The position numbers were made by a program, and so were the translations under genes. The notes below the pieces were generated by a model. The model had not been told where the DNA came from and searched no databases. It worked only from the letters and a program-made list of their open reading frames with translations. A stretch of 64,000 nucleotides of DNA from Bolinopsis microptera (taxonomy: Eukaryota). The stretch covers positions 4,810,797-4,874,796 of the forward strand of contig NC_087080.1 of NCBI RefSeq assembly GCF_026151205.1. The letters run 5' to 3'. This document shows positions 1 through 56,674 of this stretch, piece after piece; position 1 is the stretch's first letter, and every line of letters starts with the position of its first letter.

Positions 1-64
1 TATCTCATACAAATTTGCCAGTTCTGCAATTTATCTTATTCTGACAAGTTTATAGCAGCATAAA

Positions 65-382
65 TTGGAAAAATTTTCATGCTCTCACAGCAGTTCTTGC
101 ATTAACCCGTGCATTAGTAAAATCACAGTTTCATACCATGCCAAAAAGCTTGCAGTGGGACATTGCAACATGCAGGGAGGACTAACAGGTATGCCAAAAT
201 GTCTTGAAATCCAAGATCTAATCTGGAAAGAGAAATTAGATGTTTTATGCCTGAATGAAACAAATCTTAAGTCGGATATTGACTCAGCCAGTCTAAACCC
301 AAGAATTTTACTTTTATCCGCAAAGACCGTCCTAACGACAATGGTCATGGGGGATGTGGCATTCTCATCAGTGAGCACATAA
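65..382 (+). CDS. LINE ORF2 N-terminal APE endonuclease segment, out of frame with the main ORF (frameshift around 300-390)
   Basis: An LNETNL motif. Another frame across 300-390 reads FIRKDRPNDNGHGGCGILISEHIKF and runs on into the 391 ORF. Confidence 0.6.
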   Translation: MEKFSCSHSSSCINPCISKITVSYHAKKLAVGHCNMQGGLTGMPKCLEIQDLIWKEKLDVLCLNETNLKSDIDSASLNPRILLLSAKTVLTTMVMGDVAFSSVST

Positions 383-390
383 AGTTTAAA

Positions 391-3081: not shown

Positions 3082-3299
3082 GCAGTTATGTTATTTCGGT
3101 TAAGTTATCTCAGTACATAAGTGAATCCAATCTATCCCCTGCAATCAAAGTATTTCCATGCCTATTAAGCTATTACAGGAAATTAGGAACATCAGTGGAA
3201 AGGTGCACTGTCAATCATTATTGCTCCATACCTCCAGTCCTCCTGTTATGTGCAATTCTCACTGTATGCTCCTCATTTGTATCAATTATATTGATGCTA

Positions 3300-3480
3300 C
3301 ATTGTTATTGAATATGAAATAATTTTCAACCGTATTAATTTATTAACTTATTGTAAATAGCAAGTTTGACAAAGGGATTACGTTTATTTTACCCGGAGTT
3401 CGTTTAAGTTTAGTATTGTAAATAGTTAATTTGACGAAGGGAATACGTCTATTTTACCCTGAGTTATGTTTTAGTTCAAT
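3300..3480 (+). repeat. ~60-bp tandem repeat (2 copies) in the LINE 3' UTR
   Basis: ttgtaaatagcaagtttgacaaagggattacgtttattttacccggagttcg is repeated with a few substitutions. Confidence 0.6.
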
Positions 3481-3673
3481 CTTGACACAATTTTAAAATT
3501 ATAATTTAATTATTTTATATATATGTATTGTCCATAACTAGGGTGGCCTGCTAACAGAACCATGATCTGCCTTGATTCATCCTTCAGCACAGAGAAAAGC
3601 TCCTTTTTTTATACATTATGATTACAGAGGATCTGATATTTAGATATATATTGCTGTGCTGTAAAAATTGACT

Positions 3674-4210: not shown

Positions 4211-5893
4211 ATGGTTAATCGTGTTCAAAAGGAAATTTGTTATCACTGTCTGAAGAATATTGGTCTGGGGCTTCCCCACTTTGAATGCTTTAACTGCAAC
4301 AGTATTTTCCATGCCAAATGTTTTAATCCCTCCAAAGCACAAGTTATTAATGACAACTTTTACTGCATCAAATGTAAACATTCTATATCTAAAAAATATA
4401 ATCCTTTTAAAGTAATGACCGATCCTGAAGTTAATGACTGTGACCCATATCTCCAAAAGATGTCTGATGTTTTGGAAAACTGTAGATCCTATACAATTAA
4501 GGACTTTAACACACATATCAAACCGTGTTTTGCAAGCAACTGCTCCATGATTTTCCAGAACATAGATGGCAATAAAACAAATTTTGATGCCTTTAGCATG
4601 GAACTAGACCTAATAGCCGAAAAATTTAAAATTATTGGACTTGCTGAAACCAATATTGGAATAGAGGAAAGCACTGTTTACCATCTAGAGGGATACAATT
4701 GTTTCTACCAAGATAAACATATCAATAAAGCGAAGGGAAGTGGAGTAGCATTGTACTTAAAGGACGAACTTAATGGAGTTGTAAACGAAGAATTATCATG
4801 GGTAACCAAAAATCTTGAAACTCTATTTATTACCATTCAACATGATGAACCTCTACATGTAGGAGTTCTGTACCGTCCTCCTAGTGGGAACGCCTCAGAG
4901 GCACTAAATGAACTTAGAAAAATGATTGAATCATGCTCAAAAAAGAATGTTTACATACTAGGAGACTTCAACATTAATCTCCATGATGAAAACAGTAAAC
5001 TCGTTCAAGACTTTGAAAACCTTATTCTAGGCCTAGGTTTATCACCACTTATTTCTACGTCTACGCATCATAAACCAGGATGTAACCAATCATGCATTGA
5101 CAACATACTCACCACCAACATCGAAAACTCTATCTGCTCTGGAACGATTAGTACCTGCATCAGTCACCATCATGCTGTATTTAACATATTCAACTCACCC
5201 CTAGTCAGTGCTGAGGATCATGAACAAAAGCACTTCCAGTACTATGACTACTGTGCAACTAATGTGAACAAATTTGTCGAAGTACTAGACAATGAATTAA
5301 CAAGTGATCCACAAGAAGATTTCAGTACTTTTTTCACTCTATTCAATCATCAACTAGTGTGGAATCTACCAGCAGAGCACGGAAACTGGAGGACTATTAA
5401 GAAGATAGAAGATGTTCAGAGAGAATTTACACGAATAATCGACGGGATTGGTATCCTACCATACGACGAGAGACTGAGAATCCTCCAGTTAACAACACTA
5501 CTGGAGCGCCGTATGAGGGGTGATCTTATTGAAACCTTTAAAATAACGACGGGTAAAGTGGACTATGGACAAGATCTTTTCAGGATATCACGTAGTGGTA
5601 CCAAGATCCTAAAAGATAAAAGAGGAAATCAGGTCCTCAGTAACCGTGTTGCCAATTACTGGAACAAAGTACCAAGTTCGGTTAAAGAAGCCAGTTCAGT
5701 AGACGCATTCAAAGCTCGACTTCAATGTTATAAAAATGAACTGATAGCGAGTGGAGCATCGTCAAAGGGTCACTTCTGGGATCTCAGCGAAACCTTGATG
5801 TCAAAAATAAATACATGTGAGCATGATTCATATGCATATTTCATGTCTAATAACCCATTGATTGCTAAATACCGAGGAATCAATGTATCTTGA
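4211..5893 (+). CDS. Internally deleted LINE ORF (Cys-rich N-terminus, APE endonuclease, RT C-terminal tail; RT core absent)
   Basis: A 560-aa intact ORF: GLAETNIG, GSGVALYLK, YILGDFNINL, HHAVF (endonuclease). It then jumps to LPYDERLRILQLTTLLERRMRGDLIETFKI, the typical post-RT tail. No RT palm motifs are present. Confidence 0.7.
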   Translation: MVNRVQKEICYHCLKNIGLGLPHFECFNCNSIFHAKCFNPSKAQVINDNFYCIKCKHSISKKYNPFKVMTDPEVNDCDPYLQKMSDVLENCRSYTIKDFNTHIKPCFASNCSMIFQNIDGNKTNFDAFSMELDLIAEKFKIIGLAETNIGIEESTVYHLEGYNCFYQDKHINKAKGSGVALYLKDELNGVVNEELSWVTKNLETLFITIQHDEPLHVGVLYRPPSGNASEALNELRKMIESCSKKNVYILGDFNINLHDENSKLVQDFENLILGLGLSPLISTSTHHKPGCNQSCIDNILTTNIENSICSGTISTCISHHHAVFNIFNSPLVSAEDHEQKHFQYYDYCATNVNKFVEVLDNELTSDPQEDFSTFFTLFNHQLVWNLPAEHGNWRTIKKIEDVQREFTRIIDGIGILPYDERLRILQLTTLLERRMRGDLIETFKITTGKVDYGQDLFRISRSGTKILKDKRGNQVLSNRVANYWNKVPSSVKEASSVDAFKARLQCYKNELIASGASSKGHFWDLSETLMSKINTCEHDSYAYFMSNNPLIAKYRGINVS

Positions 5894-7914
5894 TTGTTAA
5901 ATTCAGAACTACATGTTAACGTCCTAAAAATAATTAATCATTAAATGTTCCGGATAGGAACATTTTTCTTTTTGAAAATATTCGTGTCCTTCCACAACCC
6001 CCTGTTACCTGTGTTTCTGTCGGGGTAGCCTAATTCATCCGTTAGAATCGCAGAGTTAGCGGAGCTCATGATATCTCACGACGTATGCTGCATGAACGGT
6101 GCAAGACTTGCGCCGTTTGTTTCAGCATCCAGTTGCGAGTGCTTGCCCATCGAAAACATGATTAGTGATTGTGGATTTTATTGATATTACTGATTATCCA
6201 TCATATTCAGTATTAATGTTATCCATTATTTATTTATTGACATCCTTCAGTCTCCAAAACGAGGTGTGAAGGTAAATTAACTTTGAGCCTTGTTTTGGCG
6301 ACTGCTTAATCGATGGGCAAGTAGGTATTTGTTTTTTAGCAGTGTTGAACATTGAAACAATTATAAAATGTTTATTTTTATCTTATATAACCAATAACGT
6401 ACAATATGAATGACATATGCTATAGTGACGTAACATATATAGTGCAAAGAATTAGTAACTTGCGAGATGTGATTTAGTGATAATCGACGTTAACATTTTG
6501 CAGTTTACAGTTGCACAATGTTGGCGTCGATTGTTACTAACATTTATCTGAATTTAATACAAGTACATGTCACATATAAATTGGGTAGCTGAATGAAACT
6601 CGTGCCTCAAAATTTTCCGTTATTAGCATTGCAGTGTCCACGCCCTATACTGCGTTAACGACCGAAATTTTCCCAATATGCAATTATTATTTTGCTTCTA
6701 AAATTCTCTGATAATTAATAATATATCGTGACATGTAATTGTAAGATAACAAACCTCGCGCGCGGCGCTTACATCTGCACCTGAGAATCTCTCAGCAATG
6801 TGTGGCTGTCTGCGCGGCGGGCTGTGTATTGTGTCTATAGCTGAATTTAAATTTAGATTTATTTGTAAATGTATAATAATATTAAATATGTATTGATTGT
6901 TTTGTGGTAAATAAAAATTTTGTTTTACTAATTTTGTTTTACTTTCCATTATTGAGACGTTTTAAATATTTGATTTAAGAGGTTTTTATTTTATTTTATA
7001 GGACTGGTTCACAGTGTGAACAGATTCCAGACTTATATATTTTTAAGTGATATTTAATAAATGATTAAAAGAACCAATTTTAAAGTTGCCATAGTAAAGT
7101 TGCCATAGTAAAGCCTTTAGGTCCAAAAATATACCCATTATGCTCACGTAAAAACAACTCTAAATCAGTAGGCTGTCACTCTATTAATGCACCACACCGC
7201 TTCCTCCACTGCACTAAAAGTTATACAATAAATTCTACAATCCTAATTTTGTATCGTGATGGAGACCGGTGTCCATACAAAAATTTTACTAGGTTGCCGT
7301 TTGGTGTGAGCAATAGCGAACAGCACGAACACTCCTTTGCCCCGTCAACCTATATCTAATCTATTTAAAGAGTGACAACCATACTACACATTGAATTAGG
7401 ATTCCTTTAAATATCAAATTGATTTATTGTAAACTTGTTTACTCTGTAATAAATGGCATAAAATTGAATTTTTGTTTAACTGAATTTTTGTTTGATTATG
7501 TTTGCGTTTCATTGCTCAACAGCTGTTCGAAGGATCAAATATAAGAATTTTTGTTTAACTGATTTAACTATAACACCATATATTTCCTCACATTTTGTCA
7601 GAACTTCCCAACTATTCCATGGTCCTAATTTCAATCGAGATGGATCACTTACATTTTCATGATCTGGAAAACAGCATTCCTTTGCCTCTTCTACAATTTA
7701 TCATGTATATCATTAGGTGGCCCATGTGTGTCATTTTTGTAAAATTGCTGTAAAATCTTTATTTAATATTCTAATCGCTATCTTTATCTATTTATATATG
7801 TATTTTAGCCGTATCTCTATTAATTATCTTTAAACTCCTCTCCGCTCGCCTCCCGTGTGAAACGTGCGCGCCTGCACGCTGCAGTGAGTGGCGCGAAAGC
7901 ACATGGTTAGGTTA

Positions 7915-9685
7915 AGGCGCGTGTACTGTTGCTGCACAGGCTAAAATATATGTTAATTGACAATGTCAATTCATCGCAGCTCGGCGAGGCACAGTAGCGC
8001 ATTTCACCGATTTAGCGTTGCAAGAAGCATAATCAATAATTGAATGCGCGGCGCGGCACAGTAACGCATCGTGCTACAAGCTATAATATTTATAAACATA
8101 CTCATTGGAGAATGGAGCTATGGAGGAATTTGTATCACGTTGTGACACCCACGGTCGTCCTGACGATACAGGGGGAGCCGCGCACTTCGTGCGCGGCGGG
8201 TGATACAACGTATGACAAGGAGGAATGAAGCTGCCTACTGCGCGTGCTGTAGAATGACAGGCTGAGCGCTGCCAAGTATTGCATATTGAAGCGTGTACGC
8301 CGACGCACGACAGGCGAGCTCCTGTGTAGTGTGTCCTGGGATTGTGCGCGAAGATCGAAATGCAATTCGTGTATCAAGCCAACTGCCAAGTGCCAACAAT
8401 TTGTTTATCGTTATAAATGATAATGGACTAACCAGTTTCGGGATACTTCGTAGCAACTAGCAAGCTTGCCGCGCATCGATCCAATAATGCTTCTCGTCGT
8501 AAGGCCACCTTACGACGTAAATGTTTGTCGTTAGATGTAGGCAAAATGCACCCGGCACCCCTGCGGACCTCGCTGAGCTGCTATGCAAAGCGAAAAAGCA
8601 AAAACTCAATGGATGGTTAGTGGTTACCCGTACCGTAATGGGTGCCACATGCCTAGCATGAAATATTTACTTACTTACTTGCACTTAATTTGTGTATTAT
8701 ATGTTCATAATCATATAAATTCGGCGGAATGACAGGCTTGAGGCTGAGCGCGGCCCAGTAAACTTCGCATCGAAAAATTTAAACGAGTAACATCCGTCAA
8801 CTAATTAGTAGAGGCTCTTACGGGCAAAAAGACGTGTTTTTTGCTACGAGTTTAGAGACCTAACCGCTAATTGGACACAATAGTATGATGTCTAAGGATC
8901 GATAATATGTTAAGAAGTATAAATTTGGCCTTATTCGTCACGTGCTATACCAATGCGCGTTTTAAACTTTGACAGTCTATTAATCTAAGGCAAATAGATT
9001 AATTATATTCATATTTTGTCAGCAATAAGATCACATTATTTTCTATTTGGTGTGAAAATATGAGCTAGAACGGACATAATCGCGCTGAGTTATAGCTGTT
9101 TGAAATTTATGATGAACGCGCGGGTGCCAATTGATAACAACTAAATGCTTTTGCGCGTAGTGCGCGTCGAAAATTTGGCAAAAACGCTTGCGGAGTGACA
9201 ATATTCAAACTTCGATAAAGTATATGAAGTGGGTACTTCTCGGAAAGGAAAAATTTAGGCAAACACGATGTGACTATTTTTGAGTTGATTTAATACAACT
9301 GCAAAAAATTATTCAAACTTCAAGCAAAAAAGTCAAAATTTTTACCACTTTTTTGGGTTTTTGCCTGCACTAAAATAGAGGGATTTTTAAAATTTTTTAA
9401 CCATCTTGTGTGGCTGTCTTTTAGCTACCTTCATGCAAATTTTGCCGAAATGCCAACAAAATTAACTTGCTCAAATTATCAAAAAACATGCTTTTTTGGC
9501 CTATTTTTGGCCCCAAAATCGGTTTTTTGCAATTTTAACGGTGCTAACTCAGTCCAATCATTTTGAAACTACTTTTAATCGATTCTACGGTCAAAAATAC
9601 GTCTAGTAAGGTGTATCTGGGGTCCCTAGCGTATCGAGCAGACAATGCCCGTAAGAGCCTCTACTAAATAGTTATATGTAATTTG
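7915..9685. repeat. Left arm of outer inverted duplication (pairs with 19637-21385)
   Basis: ORFs at 8040-8228(+), 8135-8389(-), 8235-8456(-) and 8457-8648(-) translate to the same proteins as 21100-21288(-), 20939-21193(+), 20872-21210(+) and 20680-20871(+). The flanks of the included MITE are reverse complements of each other. Confidence 0.85.
8808..9664. mobile_element. MITE-A copy 1 (Tc1/mariner-like nonautonomous element, TA target duplication)
   Basis: Terminal inverted repeats GTAGAGGCTCTTACGGGCA ... TGCCCGTAAGAGCCTCTAC, flanked by TA on both sides; about 857 bp. Confidence 0.75.
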
Positions 9686-10180
9686 ACCAAAACCCATAAT
9701 CATGGGTAGAGTGGACCGCTGCCAGTGTCTCTCTTTCCCAAACAAAAGGAAATGATATTAATTTGATTGACCGTTCTCAAATGCAAAATGATACCGAGAA
9801 TGAAATCGGTCGCTCGCTTTTCCCATTCATTCACGGCTTTCGAATTGTAATAAGTTTCGATTGATTATATCAATCAGATGCTGTAAAAATCTCTTTGGGT
9901 TGCGTTCGGGTCGATACCTAGTATTTCGGGGTAAGGGTGGTAGTTACTACTACTGAAGTTTATTGAATCTTTATTGCCGAGTACAGCTGCTTTTGGGTAG
10001 TTTTTCTTAGTCTATTACAATTGTAAATGAATGGGAAAAGCGAGCGACCGATTTCATTCTCGGTATCATTTTGCATTTGAGAACGGTCAATCAAATTAAT
10101 ATCATTTCCTTTTGTTTGGGAAAGAGAGACACTGGCAGCGGTCCACTCTACCCATGATTATGGGTTTTGGTCAAATATCA
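9683..10180. repeat. Hairpin (foldback) element: ~150-bp inverted arms around a ~190-bp loop
   Basis: 9690-9835 aaaacccataatcatgggtagagtggaccgctgccagtg... is the reverse complement of 10025-10175. Confidence 0.8.
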
Positions 10181-11639
10181 TCTATTTTTGATTATTATAT
10201 AATGTCAGGGTACTTTATAAAGTCGAAATATAAACTGATATCTTCATTAATAAGGAGGAAGTTTCAACGATTTCGAAATTTTTCTTTTAAAAACATTTCC
10301 TTGTGTTTAGGTAAGCATATCGGTCGATCACTGACTGAATATGCCACTTCATACTCATTCAAGTTGGCATTAAATTCATATATAATGACATTAAACTGTC
10401 GTGGCAAAGCAGAATTTGTTGGAAATCACGAATGAGCAAAATTCTCACCTTTCGCGCGTGCAAACTTTGAGCGGACGTTGCGTGCGCATCCAATATTGAA
10501 TCGCCGTAAATTTTTGCATGTAATTGTTTTATATATAGTTTGATAAGCATGCAAAGTTTCAAAGTATTTCAAGAAGAATTGTAATCACAACGGCACTCTA
10601 AAGTTGACAGAAAATGACGAAAACAGCAATTTTCAGTGATTTTAGCGATTTTCTATCAATTTGGGCGTGTCCCCACGTGTGCAACTTTTCGATTTTTAAC
10701 TTTAAAACTAGCCTAATGCACAATTTATACCTATAGGAAGCAGAACTGAGCTCCACAACTCAAGGCATGGCCCAACACCAGAGAATACTAAATCGCAAAA
10801 TTGACGTTTTTATAAAAAAATTCTTCAAAAAAGCACAAACTTCAATGACGAATATCTTTATGAAGGAGCAAGCTAGAAAAACTTTCCGGTAGATTTTCAG
10901 AATGCTTAAACAATTATCTAAGGTAAAAATTTCCTCAGATTTTGAATACAATTACTTTTTAATGGTGTAAAATCATTTTTAAAAGTTATTACTTTGTCAA
11001 AAATCAAGTTTTAAAAACGGTTAACTTGATGACGTCATCAAAGGGTGTTCATGACGTCAAATAATTTGTTTATACAATGTAAACTAAAGTGTAAACAATT
11101 ATTTTCAAGACCTGTGGTCGGAAATGGCTGTATCTTTTATACTTTTGAATCTATGGACAATTAAATACAGGCTACAATTGACTGGCAAAGCGTCTATCCC
11201 TGAATATATGTATATGTATATGTATGTATGTATGTATCACGACAATCTGTCGTAAAACAGGGGTTCTAGAAAACCCACTTCCCGATGGTCCTGAAACCTG
11301 AAACTTTTTTTGCAATCGATTTGGTCAACGTCTAGACGCCCTGAAAAATTTCAGATCTCCAACTCAATTTTAACATGGTTTTTAAAGCACCTGAATATGG
11401 CGAGTTTGGGTTTTTTACCGAATTTCGTATAACAGTGCTGGCGAGTATTTTATGCAAATTTCTTAAAAATCTCAACATAACTATTTTTTATTCCTGTCAT
11501 CTTTGGCATCAAATTAGAATGTTTTGAACTAAAATAAATCTGCTGAACGACTTCCGATGAGTCTTAATGTCTGAAAAACACCTGCCGCCTCCGGCCGGAG
11601 TGCACGCTTCGCGTGCACGAAAGAGGCTTGTAACGTGTA

Positions 11640-11712
11640 CCAAAGAGGGTATAATAGCAAAGGGGGTATAATAGTAAAGGGGGTATAATAGTAAATGGGG
11701 TACATAGTATAC
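11640..11712. repeat. 17-bp tandem repeat x4 (aagggggtataatagta)
   Basis: Direct reading of the sequence. Confidence 0.8.
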
Positions 11713-12030
11713 CCACAATAAATGCAACGGTCGTGCTTGCCAGCACTGTGATAATTAAAAACAAACTTTGCTTGTTTACCTGAAATTAGAATTTTATACA
11801 ATTAATGTAAGATTGAAGTCGTGTTTTTACCAATTTCCCTGCACCATCCGGTAAATTTATTACCCTCAGCCCTTCGTTGTGGGCTGCGCGGTCGTATCGT
11901 GGCTTTCGCCACGGTATAGCGGGGGCGAAATGAAATACAAATGAGGATCGCGACGCGTGACTTGTAGGTTTATAACCTACCAGGACGCGCGCCGAGTTGG
12001 ACTCGTCGACGGAGTATTTTTAAAACTGGT

Positions 12031-12447
12031 AAAGTTATTCCTATTTACAAGAAAGACAATAAGGAATGTGTTGAAAACTATCGGCCTGTATCAATATTAC
12101 CTTTATTTGGAAAAATTTTCGAGAAGATCATTTACAAACGGCTCTATAATTTCTTCACATCTAAAGGTGTATTGACAGACTCACAGTTTGGATTTAGAAA
12201 AGGTCATTCCACCACTCATGCTCTACACAAATCTATAGACTCCGTTACAAAGACTCTAGCTGGCAATAAACATGTCTTAGGAATATTCATTGACTTAAGC
12301 AAAGCCTTCGACACCCTTGACCACAACATTCTTCTAAGCAAGTTAAACTCCTATGGTATTAGGGGCACAGCACTTACCCTACTTAAAAGCTATTTGACTA
12401 ACAGTATGTTATGTATAACGATGTACCATCAGAAACAATGGATGTGA
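12031..12447 (+). CDS. LINE RT N-terminal part (frame 0), start truncated
   Basis: KVIPIYKKDNKECVENYRPVSILPLFGKIFEKIIYKRLYNFFTSKGVLTDSQFGFRKGHSTTHAL...IFIDLSKAFDTLDHNILLSKL. Confidence 0.75.
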   Translation, partial: KVIPIYKKDNKECVENYRPVSILPLFGKIFEKIIYKRLYNFFTSKGVLTDSQFGFRKGHSTTHALHKSIDSVTKTLAGNKHVLGIFIDLSKAFDTLDHNILLSKLNSYGIRGTALTLLKSYLTNSMLCITMYHQKQWM

Positions 12448-13529
12448 AATTTGGGGTACCACAGGGGTCAATTCTAGGGCCATTACTCTTTCTACTGTAT
12501 ATGAACGATATAGTGAACTGTTTTTCAGACAGTGAGGTGAAATTTGTACTTTATGCTGATGACACTAATATCTTTATATCAGGACCATCTAGAGAAGCAA
12601 CATACAAAAAAGCAAACTTAGTTCTTAAACATGTGTCGATTTACATGAAATGTAATCTACTCCATATCAATATGTCTAAATGTTGCTACATCCATTTTAA
12701 ACCTGCCTCTGAATATGATGAGACCTGTGCAAGGACCAGACCATTTGCTAACCTGCTAGATGAGTCTAGGTCAATATTCATCGATGGTAAGGTTATTACT
12801 AAAGTCAAGGATACCAAATTCCTAGGTATTGTTATAGATAGTAAGTTAAACTGGGCTGCCCATATGCACTACATTCGTAAAAAACTTCGGTCCATGACTG
12901 GTGCAATCTGTAGAATTCGACACTCGATACCTGGTGAACTATATTTGAAAATATATAATGCTCTCTTTGAATCACATCTCAGTTATGGTATAAGTGTTTG
13001 GGGCGTTGTCCTTAAAGAACGATCAAATGACAGTATTTTTATCACACAGAAGCACTGTGTAAGGATCCTTTTTGGTGATCTCGACTCATATTTAGATAAA
13101 CAATCAACATGTGCACGTACTAGACCGTATGGTATGCAAAAATTAGACCATAAACACTTTGAAAAGGAGCATACAAAACCCATTTTTAATAGACTAAAAA
13201 TTCTAACGGCTCAAAACTTGTACAAATATCACTGCATTTTAGAATTCTCTAAGATTATCAAGTACCACTGCCCCTACTCCCTTTATGAGGCCATCAACAT
13301 TTCAAACCGTGCAACAAGTCTAAATGTTATTCTTCTAAATAAATCAAATACCTTTTTGTTTAATGCAGCCAAGCTTTGGAACACAGTTCATAAAAAAATT
13401 TTAACTTCAAGCAATTGCCTAGAAACTTCCATTAACTTGATAAAATTGAGAACCAAAGCACTATTAGTACAATCACAGGCAGCCGACTTAAAAGATACCT
13501 GGACTCCAACCAATTTTAAATTGCAGTAA
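12411..13529 (+). CDS. LINE RT C-terminal part (frameshifted relative to the upstream segment)
   Basis: GVPQGSILGPLLFLLYMNDI, YADDTNIFI, LHINMSKC and a C-terminal tail; a 372-aa ORF. Confidence 0.8.
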   Translation: MYNDVPSETMDVKFGVPQGSILGPLLFLLYMNDIVNCFSDSEVKFVLYADDTNIFISGPSREATYKKANLVLKHVSIYMKCNLLHINMSKCCYIHFKPASEYDETCARTRPFANLLDESRSIFIDGKVITKVKDTKFLGIVIDSKLNWAAHMHYIRKKLRSMTGAICRIRHSIPGELYLKIYNALFESHLSYGISVWGVVLKERSNDSIFITQKHCVRILFGDLDSYLDKQSTCARTRPYGMQKLDHKHFEKEHTKPIFNRLKILTAQNLYKYHCILEFSKIIKYHCPYSLYEAINISNRATSLNVILLNKSNTFLFNAAKLWNTVHKKILTSSNCLETSINLIKLRTKALLVQSQAADLKDTWTPTNFKLQ

Positions 13530-14651
13530 TTAAATTGCACATGCAGCGGCACACACCTAATATTACTATCATGATTGAACTATAAGCTGTTAAGCTTTCA
13601 GATCCATTTTTAACCACTTGATGTAATTTTTTTAATAATTAAATATTTTATTTTACAAATTTATATCAGATCGAACCTATATTTGATAATCGAACCTATA
13701 TTCGATAGTTAAATTTATGCGATAAATTGATATTGATATTATTATTGTTGAGTGAAGTTAACTCCTGAGATAAATTTTATTAATTTTTAACAAAGGGACT
13801 TGGAGTATAAACGACCAAGTTCGCATAAATGCCTACCCAACCAAGAATTTAGGAGGCAAGGGTGGGTGCGTAAACTTTACGGTCTGCACTCTCCGATCCT
13901 GTATCACCCTGGATTCTTTTTGACGTATTTTTGTAATAGGTATATACCTTTATCCATTCTCTTGCTACTCCAAGTCCCCTAAGATATCTGGTAAAAAGGT
14001 CCTGCTAGTTATATATAAAATATATTTATGTTTGCTTTAATTGATACTAAATAAAATTGTTGTTTTCTTGAAATTGTTGTTTTCTTGGTCCTGATTAATA
14101 TTTGAAGCAAATATTTTACGACTACAAGTATCACCTGTTAAAGAAAAGATTGGAAATTAAACTCGCCGGTACGTCGACGGATGATGCTTGTCTAAATTTG
14201 TTCGAAGTAACACGCGCAACTTTCTTTTCGAAGCGAAATGTCTGTGTTACTGGGCGGCGCTCAGCCTGTGCCTTTTCAATTTCAATGTCATTCCGCAACC
14301 GTTTATCATTTACGAACGAATAAAAACAACGTCAATATTTTACATGTCACAGTTAGCTGGCAGTACGGCCCAGTTGATAAATTGTGCATCGCGCCGATCT
14401 AGCAAAAAAACATTATTTGATGCGCTGATCAGTCTCCTAAGACTAATAATATAAAACATCGTTTCTTTTGTCCGTAATTGCCTGTACTGCGTGAGAATTA
14501 CAAAATAATTACAGCACATTTACAAAATAAGAATAATGAAAAAGTAAACGTGTTTTCTCGGTTATAATTCATAATTATTTTTATAATAACGCTTTATTGT
14601 TAATGCAATCATAGTGGTCAGCTTGTGACATGGCTATGACGCCTTTTTCTT

Positions 14652-14836
14652 ACATGGTTATGACATGGTTATGACATGGTTATGACATGGTTATGACATG
14701 GTTATGACATGGTTATGACATGGTTATGACATGGTTATGACATGGTTATGACATGGTTATGACATGGTTATGACATGGTTATGACATGGTTATGACATGG
14801 TTATGACATGGTTATGACATGGTTATGACATGGTTA
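14652..14836. repeat. 11-bp tandem array (catggttatga)n, about 17 units
   Basis: Direct reading. The inverted counterpart is at 17898-18213. Confidence 0.9.
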
Positions 14837-17800
14837 CAACCAAAACTCCTTCAGACCAATTTTGAACCATTATGAGCACTTTCAGGATACAATTCATTTC
14901 CGTTCATTTCCGTTCATTCTATGAACCTGGGTCATTTTGTGCGACCTTCGATGACCTCTTATCTAGGCCTAGCTTATGACACTATCTATCATAGAAAACC
15001 GAATTGGGGGTTCCCAGCCCTTACGTAATAAGTCTCAAATTGAAATGACACACATGCGCCACCTATTGATTTACATGATAAACCTGCTAGCGCATGTGTG
15101 TCAAAAAAAATAATGATACACATGCGCTTCCTAGGTAGCGCATGTGTGTCAAAAAAAATAATGATACACATGCGCTAGCAGGTTTATCATGTAAATCAAT
15201 AGGTGGCGCATGTGTGTCATTTCAATTTGAGACTTATTACGTAAGGGCTGGGAACCCCCAATTCGGTTTTCTATGATAGATAGTGTCATAAGCTAGGTCC
15301 AGAGGTCCTCAAAAGTCGCAAAAAATGACCCAGGTTCATAGAATGAACGGAAATGAACGGAAATGAACGGAAATGAACGGAAATGAACGGAAATGAACGG
15401 AAATGAATTGTATCCCAAAATTGCTCATAATGGTTAAAAATTGGTCTGAAGAGTTTGGTTGGTCCTAGGACCACCCTAGCAAATTTTGGGAATTACTATT
15501 TAGATTTTTGGTACCATTTCGAAGACATGAGGACATCGTAGTATTCACTGTATTTGAGTGCTGGGAAGCATTAATTCGGTTTTCTTCCCAGCGCTCAAAT
15601 ACAGCTTATACTTCGATGTCCCGGGTCCCCATGGCCATATATAATGTATAATGAGGCTATTATTATAGCCCCATGGATCCCTTCGTCCCCAAAATTTGCT
15701 GGAGTGGTCGTAGGACCAACCAAAACTCCTTCAGACCAATTTTGAACCATTATGAGCACTTTCAGGATACAATTCATTTCCGTTCATTTCCGTTCATTCT
15801 ATGAACCTGGGTCATTTTGTGCGACTTTCGATGGTCTTTAGGCCTAGCTTATGACACTATCTATCATAGAAAACCGAATTGGGGGTTCCCAGCCCTTACG
15901 TAATAAGTCTCAAATTGAAATGACACACATGCGCCACCTATTGATTTACATGATAAACCTGCTAGCGCATGTGTATCATTATTTTTTTGACACACATGCG
16001 CTAGCAGGTTTATCATGTAAATCAATAGGTGGCGCATGTGTGTCATTTCAATTTGAGACTTATTACGTAAGGGCTGAGAACCCCCAATTCGGTTTTCTAT
16101 GATAGATAGTGTCATAAGCTAGGTGTCATAAGTCCTAGAGGTCATCGAAAGTCGCACAAAATGACCCAGGTTCATAGAATGAACGGAAATGAACGGAAAT
16201 GAATTGTATCCCAAAATTGCTCATAATGGTTAAAAATTGGTCTGAAGAGTTTGGTTGGTCCTAGGACCACCCTAGCAAATTTTGGGAATTACTATTTAGA
16301 TTTTTGGTACCATTTCGAAGACATGATGACATCGTAGTATTCACTGTATTTGAGTGCTGGGAAGCATTAATTCGGTTTTCTTCCCAGCGCTCAAATACAG
16401 CTTATACTTCGATGTCCCGGGTCCCCATGGCCATATATAATGTATAATGAGGCTATTATTATAGCCCCATGGATCCCTTCGTCCCCAAAATTTGCTGGAG
16501 TGGTCGTAGGACCAACCAAAACTCCTTCAGACCAATTTTGAACCATTATGAGCACTTTCAGGATACAATTCATTTCCGTTCATTTCCGTTCATTCTATGA
16601 ACCTGGGTCATTTTGTGCGACTTTCGATGGTCTGTAGGCCTAGCTTATGACACTATCTATCATAGAAAACCGAATTGGGGGTTCCCAGCCCTTACGTAAT
16701 AAGTCTCAAATTGAAATGACACACATGCGCCACCTATTGATTTACATGATAAACCTGCTAGCGCATGTGTATCATTATTTTTTTTGACACACATGCGCTA
16801 GCAGGTTTATCATGTAAATCAATAGGTGGCGCATGTGTGTCATTTCAATTTGAGACTTATTACGTAAGGGCTGAGAACCCCCAATTCGGTTTTCTATGAT
16901 AGATAGTGTCATAAGCTAGGTGTCATAAGGCCTAGAGGTCATCGAAAGTCGCACAAAATGACCCAGGTTCATAGAATGAACGGAAATGAACGGAAATGAA
17001 TTGTATCCCAAAATTGCTCATAATGGTTAAAAATTGGTCTGAAGAGTTTGGTTGGTCCTAGGACCACCCTAGCAAATTTTGGGAATTACTATTTAGATTT
17101 TTGGTACCATTTCGAAGACATGATGACATCGTAGTATTCACTGTATTTGAGTGCTGGGAAGCATTAATTCGGTTTTCTTCCCAGCGCTCAAATACAGCTT
17201 ATACTTCGATGTCCCGGGTCCCCATGGCCATATATAATGTATAATGAGGCTATTATTATAGCCCCATGGATCCCTTCGTCCCCAAAATTTGCTGGAGTGG
17301 TCGTAGGACCAACCAAAACTCCTTCAGACCAATTTTGAACCATTATGAGCACTTTCAGGATACAATTCATTTCCGTTCATTTCCGTTCATTCTATGAACC
17401 TGGGTCATTTTGTGCGACTTTCGATGGTCTGTAGGCCTAGCTTATGACACTATCTATCATAGAAAACCGAATTGGGGGTTCCCAGCCCTTACGTAATAAG
17501 TCTCAAATTGAAATGACACACATGCGCCACCTATTGATTTACATGATAAACCTGCTAGCGCATGTGTATCATTATTTTTTTTGACACACATGCGCTACCT
17601 AGGAAGCGCATGTGTATCATTATTTTTTTTGACACACATGCGCTAGCAGGTTTATCATGTAAATCAATAGGTGGCGCATGTGTGTCATTTCAATTTGAGA
17701 CTTATTACGTAAGGGCTGGGAACCCCCAATTCGGTTTTCTATGATAGATAGTGTCATAAGCTAGGCCTAGATAAGAGGTCATCGAAGGTCGCACAAAATG

Positions 17801-17897
17801 ACCCAGGTTCATAGAATGAACGGAAATGAACGGAAATGAATTGTATCCTGAAAGTGCTCATTATGGTCCAAAATTGGTCTGAAGGAGTTTTGGTTGT
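14837..17897. repeat. About 3.8 tandem copies of a 797-bp unit, each made of nested long palindromes
   Basis: The identical 60-aa ORF MNCILKVL... recurs at 15595, 16391 and 17188, a period of 796-797 bp. Each unit holds ~250-bp inverted arms (aaccgaattgggggttcccagccc...gacacacatgcgc) and a second palindrome centred on ggtcctaggacc. Confidence 0.85.
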
Positions 17898-18213
17898 AAC
17901 CATGTCATAACCATGTCATAACCATGTCATAACCATGTCATAACCATGTCATAACCATGTCATAACCATGTCATAACCATGTCATAACCATGTCATAACC
18001 ATGTCATAACCATGTCATAACCATGTCATAACCATGTCATAACCATGTCATAACCATGTCATAACCATGTCATAACCATGTCATAACCATGTCATAACCA
18101 TGTCATAACCATGTCATAACCATGTCATAACCATGTCATAACCATGTCATAACCATGTCATAACCATGTCATAACCATGTCATAACCATGTCATAACCAT
18201 GTCATAACCATGT
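17898..18213. repeat. 11-bp tandem array (catgtcataac)n, about 29 units; reverse complement of the 14652 array
   Basis: Direct reading. The two arrays differ in length (about 185 vs 316 bp). Confidence 0.9.
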
Positions 18214-18596
18214 AAGAAAAAGGCGTCATAGCCATGTCACAAGCTGACCACTATGATTGCATTAACAATAAAGCGTTATTATAAAAATAATTATGAATTA
18301 TAACCGAGAAAACACGTTTACTTTTTCATTATTCTTATTTTGTAAATGTGCTGTAATTATTTTGTAATTCTCACGCAGTACAGGCAATTACGGACAAAAG
18401 AAACGATGTTTTATATTATTAGTCTTAGGAGACTGATCAGCGCATCAAATAATGTTTTTTTGCTAGATCGGCGCGATGCACAATTTATCAACTGGGCCGT
18501 ATTGCCAGCTAACTCAAACTGTGACATGTAAAATATTGACGTTGTTTTTATTCGTTCGTAAATGATAAACGGTTGCGGAATGACATTGAAAATAGG

Positions 18597-19197
18597 GCGT
18601 GCACCATAAAAATAAACTTGCTCGGATTTTAAAAATTTTTGTACCATTGTTTTCTAGAGACTGTGAGAATTTTCACAATACCAAATTTGTCATACCTTTT
18701 TGGAAAGATCAGTGAGTTTCGCCTAGGTGCCATATTTGATGGTGCGCGGCTTTTGGAGCAAAATTAGCTGTAAAAGTCGCGTAATTTGACCAAATTTGAC
18801 CAAATTCGTTGATTTTTGTCGTATTATTTGGATATATCTTCAGTTCCTTGAATGAGATCATTCTGAAAATTGGCGACGACCTTCCAATAGGGCTTTCACA
18901 ACTGTCCGAAAAATTTGGTGGATATCGGAGTTGATATAGTAATCAAAATGGGGCAAAATACGCTGCTTTTAGCTGTTACATAATGTTTGATGGTTGGATA
19001 TGCTTCAAACTTTTCGGACACTTTCCTTGTAAGTCTATCAGTAAGCTTACCAATTTTTGTTGCAATCGGAGGTCGGGAAGGATACTTAATATCTATTTGT
19101 TTGAAGAAAATTGTGCTGGCCGAAATTAGCGCTAAAAAACCATCCTACAGTCGGTACGCGCGGCTCACTGTCGATGGCGCACTACCTATTGAAAAGG
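18597..19197 (+). mobile_element. R2 nonautonomous element copy 1 (hAT-like: TAGGG terminus, 7-8-bp target duplication), inserted in the right arm only
   Basis: Right arm: cattgaa|aatagggcgtgcacc...ggcgcactacct|attgaaaaggcac. The left arm (reverse complement) reads cattgaaattgaaaaggcac with no insert. Confidence 0.7.
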
Positions 19198-19636
19198 CAC
19201 AGGCTGAGCGCCGCCCAGTAACACAGACATTTCGCTTCGAAAAGAAAGTTGCGCGTGTTACTTCGAACAAATTTAGACAAGCATCATCCGTCGACGTACC
19301 GGCGAGTTTAATTTCCAATCTTTTCTTTAACAGGTGATAATTGTAGTCGTAAAATATTTGCTTCAAATATTAATCAGGACCGTCGACGAGTCCAACTCGG
19401 CGCGCGTCCTGGTAGGTTATAAACCTACAAGTCACGCGTCGCGATCCTCATTTGTATTTCATTTCGCCCCCGCTATACCGTGGCGAAAGCCACGATACGA
19501 CCGCGCAGCCCACAACGAAGGGCTGAGGGTAATAAATTTACCGGATGGTGCAGGGAAATTGGTAAAAACACGACTTCAATCTTACATTAATTGTATAAAA
19601 TTCTAATTTTAGGTAAACAAGCAAAGTTTGTTTTTA

Positions 19637-21385
19637 ATTATTACATATAACTATTTAGTAGAGGCTCTTACGGGCATTGTCTGCTCGATACGCTAGGGAC
19701 CCCAGATACACCTTACTAGACGTATTTTTGACCGTAGAATCGATTAAAAGTAGTTTCAAAATGATTGGACTGAGTTAGCACCGTTAAAATTGCAAAAAAA
19801 CCGATTTTGGGGCCAAAAATAGGCCAAAAAAGCATGTTTTTTGATAATTTGAGCAAGTTAATTTTGTTGGCATTTCGGCAAAATTTGCATGAAGGTAGCT
19901 AAAAGACAGCCACACAAGATGGTTAAAAAATTTTAAAAATCCCTCTATTTTAGTGCAGGCAAAAACCCAAAAAAGTGGTAAAAATTTTGACTTTTTTGCT
20001 TGAAGTTTGAATAATTTTTTGCAGTTGTATTAAATCAACTCAAAAATAGTCACATCGTGTTTGCCTAAATTTTTCCTTTCCGAGAAGTACCCACTTCATA
20101 TACTTTATCGAAGTTTGAATATTGTCACTCCGCAAGCGTTTTTGCCAAATTTTCGACGCGCACTACGCGCAAAAGCATTTAGTTGTTATCAATTGGCACC
20201 CGCGCGTTCATCATAAATTTCAAACAGCTATAACTCAGCGCGATTATGTCCGTTCTAGCTCATATTTTCACACCAAATAGAAAATAATGTGATCTTATTG
20301 CTGACAAAATATGAATATAATTACTCTATTTGCCTTAGATTAATAGACTGTCAAAGTTTAAAACGCGCATTGGTATAGCACGTGACGAATAAGGCCAAAT
20401 TTATACTTCTTAACATATTATCGATCCTTAGACATCATACTATTGTGTCCAATTAGCGGTTAGGTCTCTAAACTCGTAGTATAGCAGAAAACACGTCTTT
20501 TTGCCCGTAAGAGCCTCTACTAATTAGTTGACGGATGTTACTCGTTTAAATTTTTCGATGCGAAGTTTACTGGGCCGCGCTCAGCCTCAAGCCTGTCATT
20601 CCGCCGAATTTATATGATTATGAACATATAATCCACAAATTAAGTGCAAGTAAGTAAGTAAATATTTCATGCTAGGCATGTGGCACCCATTACGGTACGG
20701 GTAACCACTAACCATCCATTGAGTTTTTGCTTTTTCGCTTTGCATAGCAGCTCAGCGAGGTCCGCAGGGGTGCCGGGTGCATTTTGCCTACATCTAACGA
20801 CAAACACTTACGTCGTAAGGTGGCCTTACGACGAGAAGCATTATTGGATCGATGCGCGGCAAGCTTGCTAGTTGCTACGAAGTATCCCGAAACTGGTTAG
20901 TCCATTATCATTTATAACGATAAACAAATTGTTGGCACTTGGCAGTTGGCTTGATACACGAATTGCATTTCGATCTTCGCGCACGATCCCAGGACACACT
21001 ACACAGGAGCTCGCCTGTCATGCGTCGGCGTACACGCTTCAATATGCAATACTTGGCAGCGCTCAGCCTGTCATTCTACAGCACGCGCAGCAGGCAGCTT
21101 CATTCCTCCTTGTCATACGTTGTATCACCCGCCGCGCACGAAGTGAGCGGCTCCCCCTGTATCGTCAGGACGACCGTGGGTGTCACAACGTGATACAAAT
21201 TCCTCCATAGCTCCATTCTCCAATGAGTATGTTTATAAATATTATAGCTTGTAGCACGATGCGTTACTGTGCCGCGCCGCGCATTCAATTATTGATTATG
21301 CTTCTTGCAACGCTAAATCGGTGAAATGCGCTACTGTGCCTCGCCGAGCTGCGATGAATTGACATTGTCAATTAACATATATTAT
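19637..21385. repeat. Right arm of outer inverted duplication
   Basis: Reverse complement of 7915-9685; see the left arm. Confidence 0.85.
19658..20520. mobile_element. MITE-A copy 2 (inverted duplicate of copy 1 within the outer palindrome)
   Basis: Same TIRs and TA flanks. Its flanking sequence is the reverse complement of copy 1's flanks. Confidence 0.75.
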
Positions 21386-21424: not shown

Positions 21425-22025
21425 TTAGTAGGTAGTGCGCCATCGACAGTGAGCCGCGCGTGCCGACTGTAGGATGGTTTTTTAGCGCTAATTTCGGCCA
21501 GCACAATTTTCTTCAAACAAATAAATATTGAGTATCCTTCTCGACCTCCAATTGCAACAAAAATTGGTAAGCTTACTCATAGACTTACAAGGAAAGTGTC
21601 CGAAAAATTTAAAGCATATCCAATTAACAAACATTATGTTACAGCTAAAAGCAGCGTATTTTGCCCCATTTTGATCACTATATCAACTCCGATATCCACC
21701 AAATTTTTCGGACAGTTGTAAAAGCCCTATTGGAAGGTCGTCGCCAATTTTCAGAATGATCTCATTTAAGGAACTGAAGATAAATCCGAATAATATGACA
21801 AAAATGGTCAAATTTGGACGAATTTGGTTAAATTACGCGACTTTTACAGCTACTTTTGCTCCAAAAGCCGCGCACCATCAAATATGGCACTTAGGCGAAA
21901 TTCACTGATCTTTCCAAAAAGGTATGACAAATTTGGTATTGTGAAAATTCTCACAGTCTCTAGAAAACACTGGTACAAAAATTTTTTTAAATCCGAGCAA
22001 GTTTATTTTTATCGTGCACCTCCTA
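21425..22025 (-). mobile_element. R2 copy 2 (inverted orientation)
   Basis: Reverse complement of copy 1: ...ggaggtgcacgataaaaataaacttgctcgg...gatggcgcactacct. Flanked by ctaatta on both sides (7-bp target duplication). Confidence 0.65.
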
Positions 22026-22953
22026 TAATTAGCTCGTATTCAGATTGAACAATTTTGAAGTCAAATAAATGTTGTTTCTTTTAGACTTAAATAAACAATA
22101 TGGATGTAGTCCGAAAGTAATTTGTCTACTAAATAACATTTTGAAACTATGAACAAAATTGGCGAAAATTTGCCGTAGATGTGACCAAAAAACTACGCGC
22201 AGAACTAAATATTTCTTCATAGACGCGTGAAAATTTTTGAGTTTAACATTGAATATTTTAGCTTGGTTATTGTAATACTTAATTTTCAAGTCTCTATCCG
22301 ATAACTAAATATTTTATCTTTACGACAGTATAAAATTTGTTTGTATATTTGCTAAATTAAAAAAACAGTAGGAATAGAAACGTCGAAGGTCTTGCGCTTA
22401 TTTCAGTCCCAAAATATACTCTAATCATAAACTTCATAAAACCCACTGAAAATGATGTCTACAGGCATATTAAGCCCTTACACCTTCCCAAATCATTTAG
22501 CAAGGATTCAGAGCCAGTTTTTAAAATTAGCTTTCGAATATCATTGTTAAGACATAAAACTATAAATAAATGAGTGCCCTTTTTCTCTTTCGTCTCGATA
22601 GTTTCTCTTTCATTTTAACATTATACATTAGTAAAAGCAATCAGCGATCTTTATTAATCATTGAAAGAGTAGAGTAATTGGTCCTCGTCAATGTTTAGTG
22701 TCTGATTACAGTTTCGGTCCGACCTCCAAAACTGAAAAGATATTGGGGGTATTATCAGTTATGTAAATGGAAAAATTATATTTGCATCATAAAACTATGA
22801 AAACATTGAAACTAATGTTTTTGAAGGCTCGCCTATTCGTTTAAGCAATCAAATAGTCAGTGCATGCACAGTAAAGAACAGTTGAAGGCACCGGGAATGT
22901 TTCAAATATAACCTCTGTCTACTATCAAGTATCAGACCACACACTCCACTATA

Positions 22954-23811
22954 GTAGAGGCTCTTACGGGCATTGTCTGCTCGATACGTTAGGGACCCCA
23001 GATACACCTTACTAGACGTATTTTTGACCGTAAAATCGATTGAAAGTGGTTTCAAGATGATTGGACTGATTGTTCTGGGGTAAAATCGCAAAAAAACCGA
23101 TTTTTGGGCCAAAAATAGGCCAAAAAACCATGTTTTTTGATATTTTGAGCAAGTTAATTTTGTTGGCATGTCGGCAAAACTTGCATAAAGATAACTAAAA
23201 GACAGCCGCACAAGATTGTATAAAAATAAAACAAATCCCTCTATTTGTTCTGAGGTAAAAATCCAAAAAAGTGGTAAAAATTTTGACTTTTTTGCTTGAA
23301 GTTTGAATAATTTTTTGCAGTTGTATTAAATCAACCCAAAAATAATCACATCGTGTTTGCCTAAATTTTTCCTTTCCGAGAAGTACCCACTTCATATACT
23401 TTATCGAAGTTTGAATATTTTCACTCCGCAAGCGTTTTTGCCAAATTTTCGACGCGCACTACGCGCAAAAGCATTTAGTTGTTATCAATTGGCACCCGCG
23501 CGTTCATCATAAATTTCAAACAGCTATAACTCAGCGAGATTATGTCCGTTCTAGCTCATATTTTCACACTAAATAGAAAATAATGTGATCTTATTGCTGA
23601 CAAAATATGAATATAATTACTCTATTTGCCTTAGAGTAATAGACTGTCAAAGTTTAAAACGCGCATTGGTATAGCACGTGACTAATGAGGCCAAATTTAT
23701 ACTTCTTAACATATTATCGATCCTTAGACATCATACTATTGTGTCCAATTAGCGGTTAGGTCTCTAAACTCGTAGCAGAAAACACGTCTTTTTGCCCGTA
23801 AGAGCCTCTAC
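22954..23811. mobile_element. MITE-A copy 3 (independent insertion)
   Basis: Same 19-bp TIRs, flanked by TA...TA in a different genomic context (ccactaTA|gtagagg ... cctctac|TActatcc). Confidence 0.75.
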
Positions 23812-24019
23812 TACTATCCACTATGTACTATAATGTACAATGGCAATTAAAATGTGTTCCCGCAATTTTAAAATGCGCGCATCTTGCGCCGTGACCATGA
23901 CGGTCACAGCGCATGCTGGTGAACGGAGGTAGGCTGGTGAACGAGTTATTGGGACAAAATTGGAACATTTTGGAACATTGGTTACATCGGTTGTAGACAT
24001 GCAGTGATTCCCAAACTTG

Positions 24020-28619: not shown

Positions 28620-29010
28620 AAGGGAGGTCACAACACTGCGCGCAGGAGTGATTATAGCCTGTGCAGCAACAGTACACGCGCTTTAACCTAACCATGTGCT
28701 TTCGCGCCACTCACTGCAGCGTGCAGGCGCGCTCGTTTCACACGGGAGGCGAGCGGAGAGGAGTTTAAAGATAATTAATAGAGATAAGGCTAAAATACAT
28801 ATATAAATAGATAAAGATAGCGATTAGAATATTAAATAAAGATTTTGGCCCATGTGTGCAATTTTACAAAAATGACACACATGGGCCACCTAATGATATA
28901 CATGATAAACCTGCTAGCGCATGTGTATCAAAAAATTTTTTGACACACATACGCTACCTAGGAAGCGCATGTGTATCATTATTTTTTTTGACACACATGC
29001 GCTTCCATAA
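28620..29010. repeat. Additional inverted copies of repeat segments seen at 7740-7930 and of the gacacacatgcgc hairpin family
   Basis: 28620-28830 is the reverse complement of 7740-7930. 28850-29010 carries cgcatgtgtatcaaaaaattttttgacacacatacgc hairpins like 15040-15180. Confidence 0.7.
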
Positions 29011-34800: not shown

Positions 34801-35050
34801 TCAGTCCTCCTCCTTCTCAGTCCTCCTCAGTCCTCCTCCTGAGTCATCCTCCTCCTAGGTCCTCCTTCTGGGTCCTCCTCCTCCTCCTCCTCCTGGGTCT
34901 TCCTGATCCTTCTCCTCCCTCTCAGTCATCCTCCTCAGTCATCCTCCTCAGTCATCCTCCTCAGCCATCCTACTCAGCCATCCTTCTCAGCCATCCTCCT
35001 CAGTACTCTTCAGTACTCTTCAGTACTCTTCAGTACTCTTCAGTCCTCAA
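31805..35050. repeat. CT-rich (CCT/CTC-rich) satellite with about 600-bp higher-order periodicity, about 3.2 kb
   Basis: Pure pyrimidine strand apart from scattered AG. The block gggtcttcctgatcctccccagtcctcttcctcctcccct recurs near 31845, 32700, 33300, 33900 and 34500. ORF 31789-32448 is a low-complexity artefact. Confidence 0.85.
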
Positions 35051-53552: not shown

Positions 53553-53625
53553 CGACCCCGGAGGGATTCGAACCCCCAATCTTCTGATTCGAAGTCAGAC
53601 GCCTTAGCCATTAGGCCACGAGGCC
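53553..53625 (-). tRNA. tRNA-Arg (anticodon TCG)
   Basis: The reverse complement GGCCTCGTGGCCTAATGGCTAAGGCGTCTGACTTCGAATCAGAAGATTGGGGGTTCGAATCCCTCCGGGGTCG folds as a cloverleaf. The anticodon loop is CTTCGAA and the T-loop is TTCGAAT. A TTTT terminator follows on the minus strand. It lies in an intron of the ECM gene, 36 bp upstream of the exon 35 acceptor. Confidence 0.85.
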
Positions 53626-56536: not shown

Positions 56537-56614
56537 GCAAGTAAATGAAGCCAATGAACCTATAACCGTGACGATCTATGTGTTGGTTATACCGTTCGAC
56601 GAGAGTGTGTCCCT
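56537..56614 (+). CDS. Exon 44
   Basis: EQVNEANEPITVTIYVLVIPFDESVS; donor gtaagt. Confidence 0.5.
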
Positions 56615-56674
56615 GTAAGTACATACCTTTCTAAAAGTATATTGTGCTATATATTTTAATTTGTGATCTTTCAG

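Follow-up and report, generated by a model that had tools for sequence, protein, structure and literature searches.

The 64,000-nucleotide stretch of Bolinopsis microptera DNA analyzed here (contig NC_087080.1, positions 4,810,797 to 4,874,796; hereafter the window) contains an inverted duplication, or palindrome, whose left arm carries a 5′-truncated long interspersed nuclear element (LINE) that the right arm lacks. The most satisfactory explanation, and a highly probable one, is that target-primed reverse transcription (TPRT) placed a copy of a CR1/L2-type LINE, possibly Daphne/Crack-like, in the left arm after the arms had diverged. The finding supplies one unambiguous pre-integration site for a CR1/L2-type family.

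Filled and Empty Sites in the Two Arms

Both states of the site can be read directly. In the left arm, ...gactcgtcgacgg ends at position 12012 and is followed by agtatttttaaaactgg...gaaattgttgttttcttgaaattgttgttttcttg, which ends at 14087, by a g at 14088 and then by tcctgattaat; in short form, the filled site is ...ctcgtcgacGG|agtattt...ttttcttg|G|tcctgattaat. In the reverse complement of the right arm, gactcgtcgacgg, ending at 19380, is contiguous with tcctgattaat, starting at 19379, and the reading across this junction is ctcgtcgacggtcctgattaat. An earlier note on this DNA had put a LINE in the left arm, with ctcgtcgacgg and tcctgattaat as its immediate neighbors, and had described the two flanks as joined directly in the right arm. 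Both statements were borne out, and the junction sequences proved contiguous in the other arm when aligned base by base.

Self-BLAST matched 11747-12012 to 19645-19380 with 99.2% identity and 14087-14280 to 19381-19188 with 99.5% identity, the two matches abutting in the right arm with an overlap of 2 bp. When segments 9683-11752 and 12013-14088 were removed, the left arm aligned to the right arm as a single high-scoring segment pair (HSP) of 2196 columns with 99.27% identity and 10 mismatches; chance is of no concern as the source of this match. The site is also empty in an older, third paralogue of the target region, at 60689-60780, which reads ...ACAGGA|CCGTCGACGAG uninterrupted.

The presence of gg at both ends of the insert allows three equivalent placements, among them the 12011-14086 (2076 bp) given in the earlier note. 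Since longer family members and independent 3′ ends set its limits, the LINE-derived part is 12013-14087. Comparison of the filled cgacGG-LINE-G-tcctg with the empty cgacGGtcctg shows a target-site duplication (TSD) of 1-2 bp (G or GG) and a loss of zero target bases. What had been called a clean target site is thus not wholly clean, in view of this duplication or ambiguity of 1-2 bp. The 2-bp GG reading applies if reverse transcription began at ...CTT, as in the related copy L022 described below. A TSD of this length is compatible with CR1/L2-type elements without being diagnostic of them.

Anatomy of the Insert

By its match to the Pfam reverse transcriptase (RT) domain RVT_1, its 3′ terminus shared with relatives and its truncated second open reading frame (ORF2), the insert is a genuine 5′-truncated non-long-terminal-repeat retrotransposon with an RT, a 3′ untranslated region (UTR) and a tandem tail, as originally described. 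The RVT_1 match scored 127.5 bits against a cut-off of 29.6 (E = 7.1e-37). Among solved structures in the PDB, the closest was human L1 ORF2p (E = 6e-17), and R2 RTs were also matched.

The limits of the insert were set by two metagenome contigs, L021 and L022, which match window positions 12013-14084 with 88.3% nucleotide identity. The 5′ end of the insert corresponds to codon 628 of the 1134-residue family ORF2, as counted on L021; the first 627 codons are missing, and the copy was dead on arrival. At this 5′ junction the family reads ...TTCCCA|AGTATTTTT and the window ...CGACGG|AGTATTTTT. Because the two agree only from AGTATTTTT on, LINE sequence starts exactly at 12013. Microhomology at the junction was considered and rejected, the family having A where the target has G.

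Translation from 12013 follows one frame, SIFKTGKVIPIYKKDNKECVENYRPVSILP...YADDTNIF..., which is shifted once, near 12404. The shift reflects the only lesion of the reading frame, a 7-bp deletion of TAGAAAG at ∼12404/12405 relative to L021, L022 and a further relative, L001. None of the 504 codons of the remnant is a stop codon, and its product is 95% identical to the L021 ORF2. Differences from L021 at codon positions 1, 2 and 3 number 24/10/82, and the codon changes comprise 81 synonymous and 24 non-synonymous cases. Given that the differences are mostly at third positions, the divergence from L021 arose in active lineages under selection and not in place. With no stop codon and one 7-bp deletion, the copy looks young.

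The 3′ UTR, including the tail, is 558 bp long and ends in two 17-bp copies of AAATTGTTGTTTTCTTG (Tandem Repeats Finder (TRF): period 17, 2.0 copies, 100% match). The same terminus and the two 17-nt units are common to the window copy (...TTTTCTTG|GTCCTG), L021 (...AAATTGTTGTTTTCCTG AAATTGTTGTTTTCCTG|AACACC, i.e. ...TTTTCCTG|AACACC) and L022 (...TTTTCCT|ATTAATG, in which the final G is missing), and the sequences that flank them are unrelated. In a more distant relative, L003 (72% amino acid identity), the tail again comprises two units, related in sequence to those of the family, and an unrelated microsatellite comes after it. Judged by these comparisons, the 3′ boundary of the insert is the terminus of the family itself.

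A block at 13861-13894 is conserved in L021-L024 and in L003. RNAalifold predicted a stem here, with 2 compensatory pairs between the family and L003 in an alignment of four sequences. The fold of the whole UTR was no better than those of shuffled sequences (z = −1.37), and an Rfam search of the whole window identified no known RNA family in the 3′ UTR of the LINE.

Relatives of the Family

A protein search with the insert returned >7900 relatives, mostly from marine-metagenome contigs; the only named organism among them was the ctenophore Mnemiopsis leidyi (a hypothetical protein with 49% identity). Cluster names otherwise included only fragments mislabelled as “Gammaproteobacteria MAG”, and look-ups of the exact proteins of three ORFs of the window found no record. 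Metagenome contigs scanned with the C-terminal 207 residues yielded L021 and L022. Two further contigs match at 83%, and L001 and L002 at 91%. Viral contigs scanned with a conserved 16-mer of the 3′ UTR gave 17 loci, none of which showed similarity to the LINE, and these loci were rejected as chance matches.

The ORF2 of L021, a marine-metagenome relative, is intact. Its N terminus displays C4HC3 zinc-finger spacing (residues 7-55), with sub-threshold matches to Pfam PHD (E = 0.15) and likewise to C1, and RVT_1 lies downstream of weak matches to the apurinic/apyrimidinic endonuclease (APE) type, namely Exo_endo_phos (E = 2.1e-3) and Exo_endo_phos_2 (E = 6e-3), both below the Pfam cut-offs. In L003, the ORF upstream of the RT also gave an APE-type match below the cut-off (E = 1.2e-3). 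The APE domain lies upstream of the truncation point of the window copy and hence outside the insert. Upstream of the L021 ORF2, another frame remains open as far as the locus extends, and its stop codon and the start codon of ORF2 overlap in ATGA. L021 has the whole ORF2 and the window copy begins at codon 628, which reveals variable 5′ truncation, and terminal repeats are absent. A TSD search on the L021 copy found no k-mer shared between its 3′ flank and the first 400 bp. Taken together, these loci suggest that the source family is one with an upstream ORF, an ORF2 encoding a zinc finger, an APE-like endonuclease and an RT, a structured 3′ UTR and a fixed tail of 2 × 17 nt without poly(A).

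The earlier note had listed further copies of this LINE at 63040-64000 and, more diverged, at 1-3520. Neither survived comparison with the insert. Region 63046-63999 has 46-57% amino acid identity to the insert and an internal deletion, and the RT encoded by 1327-2625 is 32-35% identical; in neither case was there a usable blastn match. Because both belong to different LINE families, the proposal to date the insertion from the divergence of LINE copies within the window is unworkable. Self-blastn, a search for the tail motif with ≤3 mismatches and a search with the 3′ UTR block detected no DNA-level copy of the insert elsewhere in the window.

The segment 1327-2625 forms part of a LINE of a different family with an intact 896-residue ORF at 391-3081 (+ strand) and a 3′ region extending to ∼3480. 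Metagenome contig L025 matches window positions 744-3157 with 92% nucleotide identity, and an ∼64-bp tandem duplication is present at 3349-3476, downstream of the ORF. This LINE may be an active element. A 560-residue ORF at 4211-5893 (+ strand) encodes an N-terminal PHD/C1-like finger (Pfam PHD E = 9e-5, 22.9 bits against a cut-off of 24, with similar scores for C1_1) and an APE-like region. Its identity to residues 1-403 of the L021 ORF2 is 37%; beyond this stretch, the C-terminal part is unrelated and lacks an RT. The ORF probably represents a LINE that is chimeric or has suffered an internal deletion. On L021 itself, positions 4261-6444 hold a 727-residue RT ORF of another LINE family (RVT_1, E = 6e-32). 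As this second ORF lies 97 bp downstream of the full-length copy, LINEs are clustered in the source genome of L021 too.

Mode of Insertion

By analogy with established LINE biology, the filled site, which itself displays only the outcome, could have formed as follows. The endonuclease of the element would nick the bottom strand at about 5′-GGAC(C)^(C)GTCGAC-3′, and the free 3′-OH would prime synthesis of complementary DNA (cDNA) at, or ≤1 nt from, the 3′ end of the RNA (...UUCUUG). Reverse transcription would then stop at 2075 nt, inside the RT-coding region, to give a dead-on-arrival copy. Cleavage of the top strand just 1-2 nt away would generate the 1-2 bp duplication (G or GG) and leave the target intact. 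The tail and 3′ UTR may be subject to “stringent” recognition by the RT, which is plausible by comparison with CR1 and UnaL2. Tandem-repeat tails and conserved 3′ hairpins have been described for stringent-type LINEs (PMC3747384; PMC4316615), and 5′ truncation is typical of CR1-type LINEs (PMC4316615).

Several points weigh against this account. The classical signature of staggered-cut TPRT is essentially missing, the TSD being 1-2 bp. The APE domain of the family is seen weakly, solely below the Pfam cut-offs (E = 2e-3 and 6e-3). The predicted 3′ hairpin draws on four distinct sequences and 2 compensatory pairs, within a UTR whose fold is not significant. The palindrome is taken as assembled, and no target preference can be derived from a single insertion.

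The virtual absence of a TSD, together with the absence of 5′ microhomology, would also suit endonuclease-independent capture of a LINE cDNA or DNA fragment during repair of a double-strand break. An insertion made without the endonuclease usually has an incomplete 3′ end and comes with loss of target sequence, whereas the present insert retains its whole canonical tail and the target lost no base. In addition, TSDs of CR1/L2-type elements are normally short or absent; those of CR1-type elements have been worded as “if present” (PMC4316615). Capture at a break is accordingly considered extremely improbable, and TPRT is retained as the mode of insertion.

Order of Events in the Palindrome

The arms align in opposite orientation over 2196 columns at 99.27% identity, then 563 at 98.8% and then 745 at 97.5%, and are separated by a spacer of ∼2 kb made up of 797-bp tandem or inverted modules. 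Insertion of the LINE after the arm duplication is the parsimonious reading, and on this point the earlier note is supported: LINEs are not known to excise, the right arm shows no footprint and the older paralogue is empty. The young appearance of the copy agrees with insertion after the arms, which are ∼0.5% apart, had separated. Coordinates of the LINE, the arms and the target sites are collected in Table 1.

Table 1. Coordinates in the window of the LINE insert, its parts, the palindrome arms and the target-site copies
Feature	Position	Strand	Basis or remark
LINE-derived insert, 2075 bp, 5′-truncated	12013-14087	+	L021/L022 alignment, common 3′ terminus
ORF2 remnant: RT domain and C-terminal region	12013-13529	+	RVT_1 E = 7.1e-37; stop codon 13527-13529
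3′ UTR	13530-14053	+	conserved block and candidate hairpin 13861-13894 (GGUGGGUGCG...UGCACUCUCC)
3′ tail, two exact AAATTGTTGTTTTCTTG copies, no poly(A)	14054-14087	+	TRF
Extra G	14088	+	second copy of 1-bp TSD, or of 2-bp GG with 14087
Left-arm flank upstream of insertion	11753-12012	+	99.2% to 19645-19380; within 2196-column HSP
Left-arm flank downstream of insertion	14089-14280	+	99.5% to 19381-19188
Left arm of inverted duplication	7945-15367	+	includes left-only 9683-11752 and LINE
Right arm of inverted duplication	17366-21383	−	includes right-only MITE 18593-19188
Empty target site, right arm	19188-19645	−	junction between 19380 and 19379
Older third paralogue of target region, empty	60689-60780	+	89% to 19344-19434 over 92 bp

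The converse order, in which the LINE was present when the arms were duplicated and was later precisely deleted or gene-converted away in the right arm, has to be weighed because arm-specific loss does happen at this locus: the left arm has lost by excision a miniature inverted-repeat transposable element (MITE) that the right arm retains at 18593-19188, and the 2070-bp left-only segment could reflect a microhomology-mediated deletion in the right arm. LINEs are nevertheless not known to have a means of excision, and a deletion would need to have ended precisely at the truncation point on the 5′ side and at the canonical terminus on the 3′ side, and to have restored the right-arm site to the base, without footprint, filler sequence or missing nucleotides. 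The empty older paralogue and the young look of the copy also argue against it, and loss from the right arm is judged highly improbable.

A different concern is that the palindrome is a mis-join of two haplotypes or a fold-back chimera, such that the filled and empty sites are allelic or artefactual. Long-read assembly is known to produce false inverted duplications around cores of tandem repeats, and the center of this palindrome (15382-17597) is made up of 797-bp repeats, 99.7% identical, together with 10-11-bp microsatellites. A fold-back chimera predicts identical arms, but 10 substitutions in 2.2 kb and three large indels were observed, and the microsatellite copies of the arms differ (16.8 versus 28.8 units). 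Diverged arm copies nearby (22952-23813 at 94% and 28651-28909 at 95%) fit a real segmental duplication. An assembly artefact is therefore regarded as improbable, and the call of a LINE insertion would stand even if the arms were allelic. Insertion into the left arm after duplication thus remains the preferred reading.

The MITE (∼600 bp; 596 bp in the right arm) has the termini TAGGTAGTGCGCC...GTGCACSYCCTA and occurs at 18593-19188, 21429-22025 and 61698-62319, with 7-bp TSDs (TTTTCAA, TAATTAG and ATTGGAG) at the three copies. The termini have a hAT-like appearance, but the TSD measures 7 bp and not 8. In the left arm, positions 14273-14285 lack the MITE and read TTTTCAA-TTTCAA, i.e. both TSD copies minus one base. 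This is the footprint of a cut-and-paste excision, from which it follows that the MITE was already in place when the arms were duplicated and was lost from the left arm later. A difference in content between the arms does not always denote insertion after duplication. At this locus the MITE inserted first; the arm duplication followed, and the LINE insertion and the MITE excision came last.

The second left-only segment, 9683-11752, is 2070 bp long and is found 260 bp upstream of the LINE; its place in the right arm reads gtaat|aattaaaa without interruption, and the junction is ambiguous by just 2 bp (at). At its start is a 496-bp hairpin element whose 154-bp inverted arms (9681-9834 and 10023-10176) are 99% identical, and near its other end is a 17-bp tandem repeat (11642-11702). 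No homologue of it was found elsewhere in the window. The arm paralogue at 22952-23813 diverges 11-16 bp before the junction and gives no call of insertion or deletion; the segment is either a left-arm insertion or a right-arm microhomology deletion.

The 797-bp tandem modules at 15382-17597 are 99.7% identical and contain alternately oriented sub-repeats bounded by the 10-bp AATGAACGGA. The 11-bp microsatellite of the arms (ACATGGTTATG) has 16.8 copies on the left (14652-14836) and 28.8 on the right (17897-18213). Partial arm copies lie outside the palindrome at 22952-23813 and 28651-28909 (94-95%) and at 60689-62398 (82-93%), which indicates that arm sequence is part of a repeat or segmental-duplication family that has been amplified locally.

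Other features of the window are a 3.2-kb pyrimidine-rich satellite at 31811-35048 (GC ∼0.6, GC skew −0.67, AT skew −0.65) with degenerate TCC / CCTCCTCAGTCCT units and a tRNA-Arg(TCG) gene at 53552-53625 (− strand), the sole Rfam match in the window. An array at 56576-57569 has ∼24-bp and 48-bp periodic repeats and long ORFs in several frames (SSSASPSV-like and EETDGDAE-like), and is probably a minisatellite rather than a gene.

Taken as a whole, the locus could be a record of very recent transposon traffic within ∼0.5% arm divergence, comprising a near-blunt TPRT event, a MITE excision and a 2-kb indel, and the family, which has intact 1134-residue ORF2 copies in marine metagenomes, could be a stringent-type, Daphne/Crack-like LINE that is still active and as a rule leaves no TSD on integration. 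This broader proposal is tentative, its chances being put at somewhat below even. If it is true, the family might offer a new experimental model for L2/CR1-type retrotransposition. The insertion itself shows the family integrating with essentially no TSD and no target loss, and is of use for repeat annotation of this genome and for judging whether its transposons remain active. The element is apparently an uncharacterized member of a well-known kind, and the case is one of ordinary, clean retrotransposition that leaves LINE biology as known unchanged.

Comparison with Known LINEs

The window family resembles mammalian L1 in RT fold and sequence, in the logic of TPRT and in 5′ truncation. Unlike L1, it has neither a poly(A) tail nor a TSD of 7-20 bp, and its copies have in common a specific, putatively structured 3′ end. 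Membership of the L1 type was rejected on the grounds of the tail (AAATTGTTGTTTTCTTG × 2), the 1-2 bp TSD and the lack of poly(A).

The comparison of filled and empty sites is similar in principle to the use of retroposon presence/absence markers, which call for the same target, orientation and subtype and a clear empty site at orthologous loci (PMC4316615). Here, by contrast, paralogous arms and a third paralogue were compared rather than species.

A 3′ end that lacks poly(A) and is made of short tandem repeats is a trait of the CR1/L2 group and was found in the window copy, L021 and L022 and, in related form, in L003. Likeness to the CR1 clade extends to an ORF2 with an RT and a putative APE, heavy 5′ truncation, short or absent TSDs and a 3′ UTR in which a candidate conserved hairpin precedes a short tandem-repeat tail (PMC4316615). 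The family differs from CR1 in that its tail consists of two copies of a 17-mer rather than an octamer microsatellite and its zinc finger heads ORF2 rather than lying in ORF1.

The position of the finger is closer to that described for the L2 lineage. In L2 subgroup 5 of Metcalfe and Casane (2014), which includes Daphne/Crack elements of Nematostella, Saccoglossus and Ciona, a PHD-type finger follows a stop/start junction at the start of ORF2 (PMC4120745), an arrangement matched in L021 by the ATGA overlap and the C4HC3 spacing. The family departs from Daphne/Crack in its sub-threshold PHD match and in a 17-nt tail unit fixed at two copies. The Daphne/Crack match is best treated as a lead, suggested by the described architecture, and the family may belong to CR1 or to L2/Daphne/Crack. 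A tandem-repeat tail is likewise shared with the L2 lineage, as in the (TGTAA)n of UnaL2 (PMC3747384). The hosts of L2 subgroups 4 and 5 are marine invertebrates (Nematostella, Saccoglossus, Ciona and Hydra; PMC4120745), which fits the marine-metagenome origin of the relatives of the window family.

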